Virus record (IMG/VR): IMGVR_UViG_3300009168_000007
Coordinates: 534 to 64,533 of that record
DNA length: 64,000 nucleotides
Source of the DNA: a virus
Lineage: Duplodnaviria; Caudoviricetes
Strand: one strand, 5' to 3'
The number at the start of each line of letters is the position of its first letter. Position 1 is the first letter of the stretch. The notes beneath the pieces are model-generated. The model did no database searches and was not told where the DNA came from. It saw nothing but the letters and a program-made list of their open reading frames with translations. This document shows, piece after piece, positions 14,786 to 25,830 of this stretch. Made by a program: the position numbers and the translations under genes.

Positions 14786-14904
14786 AAATACATAAAAATA
14801 CATAAATATTTTGCGCGGGGGGTTTACAGATTCGCGATGGTTGTGTATAATATATGCAAGTAGATCAAATCTAACGTCTTTGGACTTTGGAGAGGAGAAA
14901 CATC

Positions 14905-15579
14905 ATGTCTATGGATTTTGAGGAGCGAACACTACAACGAACCGAGGTTCTACGGAAGTTACAAAAACTTTATGCGATCATGGAAGATACGCGGTCGAAC
15001 GAGGGGATGGTCGAGAATGCCGCCTTGTTGGCGCAACGATTGATGGTAAAATATGATATCGACAAGGTCGAACTCATCGCCCCCGAGGACGATGAGGCGG
15101 TCAATCGGCTTACTAAAATTAAGCCAAAGTGCTGGTATCATAAAGCCTTTGCCGCAATGTTAGCATCTCATTTCCGTTGCGACTCGATCCGTAGTGGAAA
15201 TAAGAACCTGTGGTTGGTCGGTATGGCAAGGGACGTGGAAATATGTGTCAAGGTCTTCGAGTCCGTGACCAAGTGGGCGGAGAGACGCTACTATGTTTTG
15301 TATCGTGGCATGGATCCGTATCAAAAACGTATAGGAGCTCACAACTCGTGGATGAAGGGATTCATCCTTGGTCTCGATCGTAAATATCATGATCAAGTTA
15401 CAAGCCACAAGTGGGAACTCATTCTCGTCAAGGATCCGCGAGTCGATGAGTTGGCTGAATCGATCGCCCCAAAGAAAACAAACGTGGATCATACACGTGC
15501 GCGATCGATGTCGGCGCAGGCGTATCGACAGGGGTTCGAGGAGGGGTATAAGTATGACGGGACGGAGAAACTAACATGA
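14905..15579 (+). CDS. DUF2786-like protein
   Basis: VLRKLQKLYA...NEGMVENAALLAQRLMVKYDI N-terminal motif; C-terminal AYRQGFEEG; GAGGAG RBS. Confidence 0.75.
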   Translation: MSMDFEERTLQRTEVLRKLQKLYAIMEDTRSNEGMVENAALLAQRLMVKYDIDKVELIAPEDDEAVNRLTKIKPKCWYHKAFAAMLASHFRCDSIRSGNKNLWLVGMARDVEICVKVFESVTKWAERRYYVLYRGMDPYQKRIGAHNSWMKGFILGLDRKYHDQVTSHKWELILVKDPRVDELAESIAPKKTNVDHTRARSMSAQAYRQGFEEGYKYDGTEKLT

Positions 15580-15648
15580 ACCGGTCGCGTGAACTTTCTT
15601 GTAGTATCACGTGAGCAGGATACGTGGGGGATGTAAAGTTTTTGATTG

Positions 15649-15742
15649 GATTTTCTACCGGGAACATCCGTGCAATATAAATAGGTTGCAAAAATAATGT
15701 GCAAAAGGTATGTACAATTTCGCAAAACGTGATATAATATAA
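15649..15742 (+). repeat. ~95 bp repeat unit (second copy 16143-16236) combining GGGAACATCCGTGCAA motif and early promoter
   Basis: ATTTTC..CGGGAACATCCGTGCAATA.AAA...AAAAATAATGTGCAAAA..TGTACAATTTCGCAAAAC.TGATATAATATA in both copies. Confidence 0.85.
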
Positions 15743-15790
15743 GTATACTCACGAGCCAAAAGGCTTGTAACGACCAAAAGGAGAACGAAC

Positions 15791-16069
15791 ATGAGCGAGA
15801 TTACAAAAAAGAACCTACTTGAGGCCATAAAGGAAATGGTCAACGACGTATTCACCGGAACATTTAGCACGCGCGAAATTAAGGTAAATTTTGTCGATAC
15901 TTTAACCGGCAATACGGCCAGTAAAATGGCGGTGGAAATGTTGGAGGTGCCGTTCGAACTCATGTGGATTGACGAGTATGATATGGGGGATGATTCTGAC
16001 GTAAGTTTGGCGATCGAAACGTTGGATCATGCGACTTTCGTTCTTCATGTGGAAGAAATAGAAGAGTAG
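15791..16069 (+). CDS. small acidic hypothetical protein (early cassette)
   Basis: Own promoter, AAGGAG RBS, followed by GC hairpin 16077-16129. Confidence 0.75.
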   Translation: MSEITKKNLLEAIKEMVNDVFTGTFSTREIKVNFVDTLTGNTASKMAVEMLEVPFELMWIDEYDMGDDSDVSLAIETLDHATFVLHVEEIEE

Positions 16070-16265
16070 AGTTTATTCCCCCTCCCCAAAATACCGCGAC
16101 GAGGCAACACGAGGCAACTTGGGGAGGGGAAATTTTTTTGTTGAATTTTCCGTCGGGAACATCCGTGCAATACAAAGTATTGTAAAAATAATGTGCAAAA
16201 AGGGGTGTACAATTTCGCAAAACATGATATAATATACTTATCGACAAAACAAAAGGAGAAAGAGC

Positions 16266-23097: not shown

Positions 23098-23388
23098 ATG
23101 ACTAGGGAGCCAGGATTGAACGGTTTACTTAACATGGATAAAATCAGCGAGGGTCAGAGAGCCGCGAACGCGATTCCGCGGGTGATGGAGATCACCGAGG
23201 ATCTATCCGATCAGGTCGTCAAGATTATATTCGACACGGTCGAACGGATCCGTGCGGCCACAAAACCTTGTTCGATTATCGTCGCGCCGGTTGTCCATGA
23301 TGATATCGCCGTCGGTTCCGGAGAACGGATGGCGGAGATGGAAAAAATCAACGAGAATCTATATGCCCTCGAGCGCGGAAAAAAATAA
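23098..23388 (+). CDS. hypothetical protein
   Basis: AAGGAGAAAAG RBS before ATG 23098. Confidence 0.6.
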   Translation: MTREPGLNGLLNMDKISEGQRAANAIPRVMEITEDLSDQVVKIIFDTVERIRAATKPCSIIVAPVVHDDIAVGSGERMAEMEKINENLYALERGKK

Positions 23389-23443
23389 ATAAAATTTTTT
23401 ACGGGGGTATTTACTGGTAGTTAAAAGTGGGTATAATATAAAA

Positions 23444-23585
23444 CTGATAAGACACTCCCCTCTCCCAGAGGGGGTTCTTTCTCCTCCGCTGAAAAGGCGG
23501 TCGTTAATCGGTCACGTAGGGGTGATCTTCGCTCGGTCGCCCCTACCTACGGACGAACGACCAGAAAAAGAAACGGAGAAAAATC
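23444..23585 (+). ncRNA. candidate regulatory RNA / structured leader with antisense copy of the early-cassette RBS
   Basis: Downstream of promoter 23410-23437; TTCTTTCTCCTC (23475-23486) and GGTCGTT (23499-23505) complement GAGGAGAAAGAA and AACGACC; several hairpins. Confidence 0.5.
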
Positions 23586-23699
23586 ATGATTAGTATTTTG
23601 ACGATAATTGGTATCCTTATTATTCTCGTGGGCATGGACATAGTTAATAGGGCGAATGAGCGACGGAACATCGACCGAAGAATAAAAAATATTTTTTAA
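23586..23699 (+). CDS. small membrane protein (37 aa)
   Basis: GGAG RBS; MISILTIIGILIILVGMDIVNRANERRNIDRRIKNIF. Confidence 0.5.
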   Translation: MISILTIIGILIILVGMDIVNRANERRNIDRRIKNIF

Positions 23700-23804
23700 A
23701 TTTTTATCCGCACGGGTATACCACCCTATTAATAAAGGGTATAATACTCGCATGGAGCAAAACATAACGGGTCGGCCGACCCGAAACGAGCAAGGAGAAA
23801 GACG

Positions 23805-24896
23805 ATGAAAACAGGAATTACATTACAAGAACTCAGCAAGCAGGTCACGAGCGAAAATAAACGCAAACAAGATTACGTCGTACCGACCAAATGCATGCAA
23901 TTAGATCATGTCGATGGTAACATACGACTTACCTTCGACGGTCTCAATCACCCGCCAATGAGCATGACCGACGTATCCCACACGCAAGCATGTGTACAAA
24001 CAAAGATTCCAAAAAAATATTATGACCTAATGAGAGAAGCCGCACCGGATCTACTTGTGCGTAACGTGAATCATTGGTGGAAGCAGGATAGTTCAAAACG
24101 CCTCGTGCGAACCATGAACTCAACGAAGAAAGATGGTATTCCTACCGCACGAGCAATCCTCTCCGATCATTATCGTCGAATCGATAATTATGACCTCATG
24201 GGGACCATCCTTCCGATCTTAACTAACGGGTCAGAAACTTCCTTCACGAACGTGGAATCATGTGACATTTCCGACACAAAATTATACCTGAAGGTATCCC
24301 ATCCGGGGATTAATGCCGAGATTAAAAAGGGCGATATCGTCAGGGCGGGGATTTGTATCACCAACTCGGAGGTAGGTTGGTGCTCGTTCAAGGTCGAACC
24401 TCTTATCTATCGCCTAGTTTGTAGCAACGGCCTTATCGTGCCGGACGCCACGATGAAGAAATATCATATCGGTTCACGACTCACTTCCGACGAAGATCTC
24501 ATGAAAGTATTTAGTAATGAGACCATTCAGACTGCGGAAAAAGTCTTCTTCATGAAGGTTCGCGATGTCGTCAAGGCGGCATTCAACGAGGTCGAGTTCA
24601 TGGAACATGTGAACGTGATCAAGGCGGCAATGGAGAGTAAACCGATCCAACAACCGGTTGCGGCGATCGAAGTTCTCACTCATGCGGGGACTGTGTCGGA
24701 ACCGGAGGGTGAAGGGATCCTCAACTTTCTCGCTCAGGGCGGGGATCTCAGTCAATGGGGACTCGTCAATGCTGTAACACGATACTCACAGGAGGTTGAA
24801 TCGTACGAGCGTGCTACGACATTGGAACACGTGGGCGGGGAATTATTATACATGCCCGAAAACAAATGGCTTGATATCGCCGTGGCGGCGAATTAA
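23805..24896 (+). CDS. DUF932 family protein
   Basis: RAILSDHYRRIDN, NSEVG, YRLVCSNG, WGLVNAVT motifs. Confidence 0.85.
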   Translation: MKTGITLQELSKQVTSENKRKQDYVVPTKCMQLDHVDGNIRLTFDGLNHPPMSMTDVSHTQACVQTKIPKKYYDLMREAAPDLLVRNVNHWWKQDSSKRLVRTMNSTKKDGIPTARAILSDHYRRIDNYDLMGTILPILTNGSETSFTNVESCDISDTKLYLKVSHPGINAEIKKGDIVRAGICITNSEVGWCSFKVEPLIYRLVCSNGLIVPDATMKKYHIGSRLTSDEDLMKVFSNETIQTAEKVFFMKVRDVVKAAFNEVEFMEHVNVIKAAMESKPIQQPVAAIEVLTHAGTVSEPEGEGILNFLAQGGDLSQWGLVNAVTRYSQEVESYERATTLEHVGGELLYMPENKWLDIAVAAN

Positions 24897-25830
24897 TGTT
24901 AATATTAGGACGGTCCCCAGGAGCACTCTCTTGGGGACCGTCCATCATTGGGGATAACATGGATAATAAAGATGAATTACCACCGAATGGACCATTGGTC
25001 GAAAATAACCCAATGGAAGATAAGGTGGAAGAAAAAATATTGGACGATTCAGATCTATGGAGTATATATGTGGTCATGGTATTAATGGTCATGACACGAC
25101 CGTTATACTATGTATGGATAACGGTAATATCAATCTGTGGCCAACAAGAGAGTGAACGTGGTCCTCCGCGTAGATCACAGACGTGCACTTTATCATATTT
25201 GTTTACATTTTATGTTATGTTTAGGTAAAGGGAATAGTTTCCCGCAATATCGACGCCGTTACGGCGTTATACCAATCTCAAATTCCGAAAAGGAACCTCA
25301 TGTTGTACGCGTCACTTGAAAGGACATCATACATGCCCTCGAACATAAGTTTTCGTTACTTTTTCGTGACAGCCGACACCATAGAAGAACTGGACAATTT
25401 CGCAAAAAAACATAAACTAGATTATCATCGCGGGGAAAAAATCGCCCCCGTGAGCGAGCGCTTGCGTAAGACATGCATGAATGAAGGCATACATGTCATT
25501 ACAATAGACGAATTTAGACTCAAAAAGAAATCGATAAAATAAGTGGTAATCGTTGGGCGATTTTATGTCGCCAAAATTGCCACTAAGTATGAGTTCGTCT
25601 TTGTGACAAGTAAGCGCGAGAACGATAACGGTTTTGACACATGCCGTGTCAAGATTTTGCGAAATGGCAGTTCAAAAATCCTGCCGACTAAATGTTTCTC
25701 GAAAGAGATACCGCTCAGCGAGTCTGAAACCATGGCGGTGGTGTATCATGTTCCATTGTCAAGACTCAAAAAATGCAGTTTGTTACATATAGACTATATA
25801 TAATTTATATATAAAAGAAAGTTTACGAAT

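Follow-up and report, generated by a model that had tools for sequence, protein, structure and literature searches.

Between positions 14786 and 24896 of a 64,000-nucleotide (nt) stretch of viral DNA (IMG/VR record IMGVR_UViG_3300009168_000007; Duplodnaviria, Caudoviricetes), small genes are preceded again and again by nearly the same promoter and leader sequences. This raises the question of what such an array is, and in particular whether it is an integron-like system of single-gene cassettes, as had been proposed in an original prediction made from the sequence alone. The stretch analyzed, referred to here as the window, corresponds to bases 534-64533 of the record, and all positions given are positions in the window. 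The record itself is 64,533 bp long, has direct terminal repeats at both ends and is rated 100% complete. The anatomy of the region suggests that it is probably an immediate-early array of the host-takeover type, carried by a complete uncultivated phage and similar to the promoter-early stem-loop (PeSL) cassettes of T4-type phages and to the host-takeover module of SPO1, and not an integron.

A promoter family within an array of small genes

The pattern TGTACA-N15-18-TATAAT was matched exactly eight times, always on the + strand and between 15711 and 21332, with 0.06 matches expected from shuffled sequences. A scan anchored on TATAAT extended the family to 12 members (P1 to P12, Table 1), all of them rightward; no member was found outside 14.8-23.8 kb in the 64-kb window. 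A stricter form of the pattern occurred in six forward and zero reverse copies in the full 64,533-bp record. The -10 hexamer was TG-extended in nine of the 12 promoters. When the seven promoters with a 16-nt spacer were compared, 35 of the 39 positions of AAAAGGGGTGTACAAnnTCGCnAAACnTGATATAATATA (from AAAAGGGG through TATAATATA) were fixed in at least six of the seven, and the GGGG upstream of TGTACA was conserved. The spacer of P5 contains a perfect 10-bp palindrome, TTTCGCGAAA, and near-palindromes were observed in the other spacers. The number of about 12 copies claimed in the original prediction was thereby confirmed, eight of them being exact TGTACA-N16/17-TATAAT sequences. Its statement that each gene stands behind a promoter-leader unit was too strong: the repeated promoters are real, but the 26 genes share 12 of them and form operons of 1, 1, 1, 2, 7, 1, 2, 2, 2, 5, 1 and at least 1 gene.

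Genes were called by a simple procedure guided by Shine-Dalgarno (SD) sequences, which yielded 25 genes between 14905 and 23699, followed by a DUF932 gene. The exact sequence AAGGAGA was present at 11 of the 25 array genes vs one of 14 replication genes and none of 18 minus-strand genes (1/32 elsewhere), in agreement with the shared ribosome-binding site that had been noted. The expected set of about 25 small unknown genes was also recovered: apart from the opening gene g14905, the array codes for 24 small proteins, none of which had a PHROG match at E <= 0.001 and only one of which passed a Pfam cut-off. This protein, g16266 (16266-16643, 125 amino acids (aa)), has a Tad/TadE-like N-terminus (PF13400, E 9.3e-6, 26.3 bits against a cut-off of 22.3) and carries a hydrophobic segment; its pseudopilin-like product could interfere with host pili. 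The calculated isoelectric point was below 6 in 15 of the 24 small proteins. Among 5.8 billion proteins g21588 matched only itself, an Atlas search for g18977 returned nothing usable, and Pfam scans identified no candidate DNA-binding protein among the array genes.

The sole clear paralogues in the array are three 4-Cys proteins of 64-77 aa, encoded by g17466 (17466-17660), g22262 (22262-22495) and g22467 (22467-22664). Recent tandem gene duplication was not seen, since these paralogues are only 24-33% identical. When 1.84 billion proteins were searched with a profile of the 4-Cys proteins, 41 further small representatives were retrieved (E <= 0.001). The model of the family (predicted local distance difference test score, pLDDT, 72.8) had no PDB match at E <= 0.001, no PHROG was common to more than one of its 37 members, and the family is without a name.

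Hairpins, duplicated modules and a 45-nt element

GC hairpins, defined as perfect stems of at least 8 pairs with at least 6 GC pairs, were concentrated in the array: 12 of the 19 in the window lie within 14786-23805, which confirmed the hairpins described earlier between the genes. In all 12 the C-rich arm comes first, and their predicted folding energies range from -21 to -29 kcal/mol with z from -2.5 to -6.2. On the + strand none of the 12 array hairpins was recognized by the terminator rule. Inspection by eye revealed a U-rich tail only at 16079-16129 (AAATTTTTTTG) and perhaps at 17313-17347 and 22059-22081. Solitary hairpins are separated from the following SD by 0-6 nt. Five of the 12 promoters (P3, P4, P5, P7 and P10) share their intergenic region with a strong GC hairpin, seven strong hairpins are without a promoter, and P11 and P12 are accompanied by weaker or different hairpins. 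The resulting types of intergenic region are listed in Table 1.

Both duplicates named in the original prediction were found again in front of ORFs (open reading frames) that are unrelated within each pair. The duplicate at 20063/21542 consists of 24 and 30 exact nt around a 1-nt indel (54 of 55 nt); over the longer stretches 20049-20111 and 21528-21591 the identity is 58/64, and it stops one base after the ATG. In the other pair, 85 of 98 positions are identical between 15649-15745 and 16143-16240, and 106 of 129 between 15617-15745 and 16112-16240. Exact repeats of 43, 39, 32 and 30 nt are present in the array, the 43-nt repeat being the longest. Of the two copies of the hairpin-SD module, one (20049-20111) follows a promoter and the other (21528-21591) a stop codon.

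Comparison of the units revealed that their parts are combined in different ways. The cores (-35 to -10) of P3 and P8 are 100% identical and their leaders 20% alike; the cores of P4 and P7 are likewise 100% identical, with leaders 29% alike. A leader with a small stem-loop is common to P2, P4, P5 and P8 at 61-85%, across three different cores. The parts seem to be joined somewhere between the -10 and the SD. In nine informative two-state columns of the alignment, all four combinations occurred in 27 of the 36 column pairs. The alignment is less certain in the AT-rich tract upstream, but neither the core pair 58/65 nor the conflict between core and leader groupings depends on that tract. The different combinations in front of unrelated ORFs, together with the conflicting core and leader groupings, show that the regulatory parts have a history of copying or exchange separate from that of the genes. 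The earlier claim that such modules were copied between unrelated genes was thus upheld by the conflicting groupings and the 27/36 column pairs, and the units record past copying or recombination between them.

A further repeat of about 45 nt, TTTTCyryCGrGAACATCCGTGCAA-TAyAAA..TTGTGCA with the exact core GAACATCCGTGCAA, was present in five copies, three forward and two inverted. The forward cores lie at 11451, 15665 and 16160, the last two just 5' of promoters, and the inverted cores at 18083 and 23001. In the array just two long intergenic regions lack a promoter, and each of them contains one of the inverted copies. No conserved fold was found for the element. That it might itself be a promoter was considered and rejected, as no conserved -10-like hexamer was seen by eye downstream in either orientation. 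A protein-binding site would be our guess for its nature.

Table 1. Positions of promoters, hairpins, types of intergenic region, element copies and genes in the window
Feature	Position	Strand	Details
P1	14823-14851	+	-10 at 14846; TTTACA-17-TATAAT, degenerate member; before g14905
P2 (P15733)	15711-15738	+	-10 at 15733; TGTACA-16-TATAAT, TG-extended -10; before g15791
P3 (P16228)	16206-16233	+	-10 at 16228; core same as P8 (43-nt exact repeat 16194/20597); before g16266
P4 (P16752)	16730-16757	+	-10 at 16752; core same as P7 (39-nt exact repeat 16722/20008); before g16807
P5 (P17409)	17387-17414	+	-10 at 17409; palindrome TTTCGCGAAA in spacer; heads 7-gene operon
P6	19745-19772	+	-10 at 19767; three 10-nt ATAATTGCAA repeats 5' of promoter; before g19805
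P7 (P20038)	20016-20043	+	-10 at 20038; followed by GC hairpin-SD leader; before g20108
P8 (P20631)	20609-20636	+	-10 at 20631; before g20691
P9	21304-21332	+	-10 at 21327; 17-nt spacer; before g21367
P10	22008-22035	+	-10 at 22030; TTGACA-16-TATAAT, 12/12 consensus; overlaps g21588 stop codon
P11	23410-23437	+	-10 at 23432; TTTACT-16-TATAAT, degenerate; 20-nt -10 block in common with P6
P12	23717-23745	+	-10 at 23740; TATACC-17-TATAAT, degenerate; before DUF932 gene
GC hairpin	16079-16129	+	followed by AAATTTTTTTG; most terminator-like on + strand
GC hairpin	16658-16691	+	5' of P4
GC hairpin	17069-17095	+	3 nt before SD of g17110, no promoter
GC hairpin	17313-17347	+	5' of P5
GC hairpin	17682-17711	+	directly before SD of g17726
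GC hairpin	18033-18058	+	after g17726, adjoins inverted element copy B1
GC hairpin	18731-18759	+	directly before SD of g18774
GC hairpin	20065-20086	+	P7 leader; part of hairpin-SD module duplicated at 21544-21565
GC hairpin	20289-20320	+	directly before SD of g20333
GC hairpin	21021-21045	+	before g21075
GC hairpin	21544-21565	+	second copy of hairpin-SD module, before g21588, no promoter
GC hairpin	22059-22081	+	P10 leader, before g22099
Small leader stem-loop	15753-15766, 16772-16785, 17429-17442, 20652-20665	+	GAGCC-AAAA-GGCTY
Intergenic: hairpin, promoter, small leader stem-loop, SD	16644-16806, 17290-17465		
Intergenic: promoter, GC hairpin, SD	19991-20107, 22035-22098		
Intergenic: hairpin, SD, no promoter	17056-17109, 17661-17725, 18721-18773, 20276-20332, 21006-21074, 21532-21587		
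Intergenic: promoter, short leader	19731-19804, 21282-21366		
45-nt element copy	11440-11485	+	exact core GAACATCCGTGCAA
45-nt element copy A1	15649-15700	+	5' of P2
45-nt element copy A2	16143-16195	+	5' of P3
45-nt element copy B1	18060-18112	-	inverted; promoter-less intergenic region before g18138
45-nt element copy B2	22980-23030	-	inverted; 31 nt 97% complementary to A2; promoter-less 167-nt region before g23098
g14905	14905-15579	+	224 aa, DUF2786 + DUF7168, phrog_421; opens array
Small genes	15791-19730	+	starts 15791, 16266, 16807, 17110, 17466, 17726, 18138, 18400, 18774, 18977, 19422; 59-151 aa; orphans except g16266
13 small genes	19805-23699	+	starts 19805, 20108, 20333, 20691, 21075, 21367, 21588, 22099, 22262, 22467, 22661, 23098, 23586; 37-148 aa; all orphans
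DUF932 gene	23805-24896	+	363 aa, behind P12; right end of array

Relatives, rival explanations and the favored account

Relatives of the phage were sought in several collections. No match was obtained when the array was compared with GenBank phages by megablast, nor when the DUF932 protein and the terminase were compared with viral contigs. Among 5.8 billion proteins the best relative of the DUF932 protein was 44% identical and that of the terminase 54%, and the best GenBank terminase matches reached at most 30%, none of them T4-like. Faecalibacterium phage Roos, the best DUF932 match (44%), was rejected as a relative; it is temperate, with an integrase, and has no comparable array. A terminase profile collected 80 IMG/VR loci at 42-53% identity, whose common content was the terminase only (with the portal in two loci), and none of 31 early-region proteins was present in these 80 loci. 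The strict promoter pattern occurred neither in IMG/VR viral contigs nor in JGI (Joint Genome Institute) metagenome contigs. A looser pattern returned 44 viral loci, which were discarded as unrelated AT-rich phages with weak matches to nucleotide-metabolism genes only. The phage is a singleton, with no diverged relative in any collection searched.

Another JGI contig, 18,811 bp long and nearly identical, contained 22 of the 22 array genes that could be looked up (22 of the 25 were searchable, the other three not being found under the start choices used), and the proteins were identical except for one residue in g18977. In an independent k=31 assembly a single T>A at 19242 was observed, one substitution in 10 kb, which fits the residue change in g18977. 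The second contig is too close to the record of the window and is therefore uninformative on gene turnover. The same assemblies bear on whether the array is an artefact with a chimeric order of segments between the repeats. The independent assembly does break at the repeats, but the longest exact repeat, 43 nt, is shorter than ordinary reads, both JGI contigs (64,533 and 18,811 bp) carry the same genes, and the independent contigs match apart from the one substitution. An artefact of this kind can hardly be credited.

That the array is an active hotspot of cassette shuffling, in which recombination between repeats of 40-130 bp adds, deletes and reorders single-gene cassettes by way of mini-circles and with a nuclease-based recombination system of the phage as the driver, is conceivable but doubtful. 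Unrelated ORFs are indeed flanked by exact repeats (30-43 nt) and by similar tracts (100-130 nt), the units are mosaic, and for T4-type phages PeSL mini-circles and indels at PeSLs have been documented (Arbiol et al., 2010; PMC2839356). A Cas4-like exonuclease and an annealing protein for single-stranded DNA had been suggested as possible machinery. The nuclease proved to be real, a PD-(D/E)XK nuclease (PDDEXK_1, E 3.5e-16), but models for RecT, ERF and Rad52 gave no match for an annealing protein, and the neighbor of the nuclease gene (31484-32266) had no match in Pfam, PHROGs, PDB sequences or the Atlas. Moreover, no variant with another gene content was found, the second contig carrying every gene that could be looked up; the array paralogues are old; and no joints across repeats were present in the contigs of one run, a weak test at depth 6-10, with contigs that break at repeats, and no test of rare recombinants. 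A reading that dispenses with gene turnover altogether is that old duplications have been kept alike by a regulator, for example an early shut-off repressor at TTTCGCGAAA and/or TGTACA. The fixation of 35/39 positions including the spacer, the perfect palindrome in the spacer of P5 with near-palindromes elsewhere, and the constant gene content of the second contig are in its favor, but the similarity extends past any plausible operator into upstream tracts and 50-nt leaders that are differently combined, the hairpin-SD module was duplicated without a promoter, and none of the array genes came out as a candidate for such a DNA-binding protein. We regard regulation of this kind as the only reason for the similarity as a tentative possibility, on the unlikely side.

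The promoters could also have an alternative or phage-directed specificity, as middle-class promoters do, and not be used by the host primary sigma factor at entry, given the -35 sequence TGTACA after GGGG. This deviation from TTGACA is consistent in eight copies, and the GGGG upstream is conserved. However, a TG-extended TATAAT is a signature of the primary sigma factor, P10 is a perfect TTGACA-16-TATAAT promoter, and a Pfam scan of 30 proteins from the flanks and the replication module, which make up part of the ORFs of the genome, detected neither a sigma factor nor an RNA polymerase. In addition, the flavor AAGGGGTGTACAA...TATAATA was present in the genomes of 18 bacterial species, so it is not specific to phages. 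In sum, an alternative specificity appears very improbable. Fifteen of the 18 genomes belong to Bacillota, mostly metagenome-assembled genomes of Clostridia, and this promoter flavor, together with the type of SD, weakly indicates that the host is probably a member of Bacillota. The flavor, written as (A-tract)GGGTGTACAA-N14-16-(TGn)TATAATAT, also recurs in many unrelated AT-rich viral contigs, and GGGTGTACAA/TATAATAT may be a common variant of strong promoter in that bacterial group.

In the immediate-early array that we favor, the host RNA polymerase with its primary sigma factor would start, upon entry of the phage DNA, at the 12 rightward extended -10 promoters, each unit consisting of an A/T-rich tract with TGCAAA repeats, GGGG-TGTACA, a spacer of 16/17 nt and a TG-extended TATAAT. 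The 12 short operons of 1-7 genes would then give rise to 25 small, mostly orphan and often acidic proteins as well as to the DUF932 protein, and the unusually strong ribosome sites of the AAGGAGA type, which nearly all of the genes have, would ensure a high yield of small proteins acting on the host. Most GC hairpins have no U-tail and lie 0-6 nt before a ribosome site, and for this reason they are more likely to be RNA-end protectors or processing sites, which would form a 3' block for the upstream cistron and a 5' block before the ribosome site and thus give every cistron a stable end; a few may attenuate rightward transcription. The fixation of 35 out of 39 positions goes well beyond the needs of the primary sigma factor, so an additional factor may bind the spacer, perhaps for early shut-off. 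The regulatory parts, as their different combinations show, were distributed and newly combined along the array, through duplication, homologous recombination or gene conversion between repeats.

Several observations weigh against this account. The timing, the start sites and the polymerase used, like the roles of the hairpins, are inferred from the sequence only. The -35 hexamer is TGTACA and not TTGACA, and the number of fixed positions exceeds what a primary sigma factor requires, so that an additional factor may be involved. On the minus strand five of the 12 hairpins (17683-17703, 20065-20086, 20286-20305, 21544-21565 and 22058-22082) were recognized by the terminator rule; with their T-rich tail on that strand they look like leftward antisense terminators, which the account does not explain. 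No compensatory change was observed in the five pairs of the small leader stem-loop. The five-copy element in both orientations falls outside the account. Finally, the weak hint at Bacillota comes from a biased collection of genomes.

If more were at work than past copying, the array could be an exchange system of the PeSL type at work in a phage that is not of the T4 type but deep-branching, with a host of the Gram-positive type. Its modules would then be crossover sites at which co-infecting phages swap orphan early genes, and the 45-nt element would be a dedicated protein-binding site that controls the exchange or switches the early program off. We consider this improbable. If it were true, the shuffling of promoter/stem-loop cassettes would be a general phage strategy and not a peculiarity of T4 relatives, and units acting as exchange points would extend the PeSL idea beyond T4-type phages. 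In any case, the analysis makes clear predictions for a lineage without cultured or sequenced kin: 12 sites at which transcription starts, 12 hairpins in the RNA, and 25 small proteins that are made early and have no relatives. Even otherwise the array offers, within a short stretch, candidate proteins for host takeover or counter-defense, together with very strong modules of promoter, leader and ribosome site for a host of the Gram-positive type.

Genomic setting and comparison with known systems

The array is located between a leftward packaging module and a rightward module for nucleotide metabolism and replication. Genes up to about 11 kb are leftward and comprise the packaging module with the terminase (8728-10395) and a portal-like DUF4055 protein (7182-8726); all genes from about 12.7 to 44 kb are rightward, and the GC skew changes sign near 14 kb. 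The rightward module 3' of the array encodes a methyltransferase, a MazG-like protein, ThyX, the PD-(D/E)XK nuclease, a dCMP deaminase, an SNF2 helicase, Pam3 gp33/gp34-like proteins, an AEP primase, a UvrD helicase, a thymidylate-synthase-like protein and a family-A DNA polymerase (PolA). The load of nucleotide-metabolism genes is unusual at 25831-41128, with an S-adenosylmethionine (SAM) methyltransferase, a MazG-like protein plus P-loop, ThyX, dCMP deaminase and a second thymidylate-synthase-like protein (403 aa), and the phage may modify a DNA base. Six-frame searches of the whole 64,533-bp record gave zero matches to the tyrosine recombinase family PF00589 (controls matched in 14/14 genomes) and zero to the serine recombinase family PF00239. 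Since neither type of recombinase was found, the phage looks virulent.

Some further features were observed around the array. An AT-rich stretch of 1.65 kb without ORFs (11090-12740) separates the leftward packaging genes from the first rightward ORF. Four direct repeats RCCATGYCG, about 20-22 nt apart, lie at 12602-12672, and just 3' of them a promoter-like site TGTACA-N17-TACAAT (12705-12733) ends 7 nt before the ATG at 12741; here there could be a thirteenth promoter of the family, from which a leaderless message would start, or the region could serve as origin or operator. Between g13052 and g13862 a GC-rich region of about 270 nt without ORFs (13565-13835) has a predicted fold of -110.3 kcal/mol (z -4.2), matched by none of 200 shuffles. 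It had no Rfam match and may be a structured RNA; no RNA families and no tRNAs were found. A strong hairpin with a 12-bp stem (24908-24943) directly follows the DUF932 stop codon, and as it lies inside the mechanically listed ORF 24896-25228, the start of this ORF is doubtful. In the structural region, the minus-strand gene 46384-49416 (1010 aa) contains 5-6 tandem units of 117-123 nt with 61-89% identity (48418-49071).

The likeness to an integron is limited to an ordered series of short single-gene units separated by repeated, foldable sequences. In an integron, one promoter, Pc, serves promoterless cassettes, whereas 12 internal promoters are present here. The attC sites are imperfect palindromes bounded by RYYYAAC ... 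GTTRRRY; no attC-like pair of core sites was found on either strand in 14786-23805 (shuffle mean 1.4), and the array hairpins are perfect GC stems, unlike attC palindromes. With no PF00589 or PF00239 recombinase, zero attC-like pairs and many promoters instead of one Pc, the integron-like part of the original prediction had to be dropped.

Its comparison with PeSL cassettes was more successful. PeSL cassettes are known from T4-type phages (Arbiol et al., 2010, PMC2839356; Comeau et al., 2014, PMC4122927), and in both systems intergenic units of about 100 bp are repeated, with an AT-rich tract, an early promoter of the sigma-70 type, an SD and an ATG. A stable G/C stem-loop is part of each PeSL unit; here strong GC hairpins accompany five of the 12 promoters. 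As in PeSL regions, the units precede small orphan ORFs in one variable-looking region, the positions of the parts vary and the units are mosaic. The apparent exchange points are placed alike, crossovers being mapped between the -10 and the SD in PMC2839356. The two differ in that the present phage, of 64.5 kb, is unrelated to the T4 type, that its stems have the C-tract before the G-tract whereas polyG then polyC is described in PMC2839356, and that half of its hairpins stand alone directly before a ribosome site, without a promoter. The indels and mini-circles that define PeSLs are evidence from T4-type phages, and here the likeness is one of anatomy and mosaicism. In the library searched, the term PeSL occurs in 17 papers, and those on phages deal, by title and abstract, with T4-type phages or other myoviruses, cyanophages and haloarchaeal viruses; no description of PeSL-type cassettes in a phage like the present one was found there.

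In Bacillus phage SPO1 the host-takeover module groups small genes of the early class, whose promoters and ribosome sites are strong (Stewart et al., 1998, cited in PMC6873191). The present array resembles it as a cluster of about 25 small, putatively early genes with promoters and ribosome sites for high expression and mostly unknown products, in a phage of a Gram-positive-type host. The near-identity of promoter-leader units is less extreme in the SPO1 module. No homology to SPO1 genes 37-60 was found (0/24 PHROG matches, no nucleotide match in GenBank phages), and the SPO1 module lies in a terminal region, whereas the present array lies at 14.8-23.8 kb, with the terminal repeats at the ends of the record. 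The T4-type PeSL cassettes and the SPO1 host-takeover module are the closest known kinds; present evidence calls for no new mechanism, and the array is a known layout, unusually regular, in an orphan lineage.

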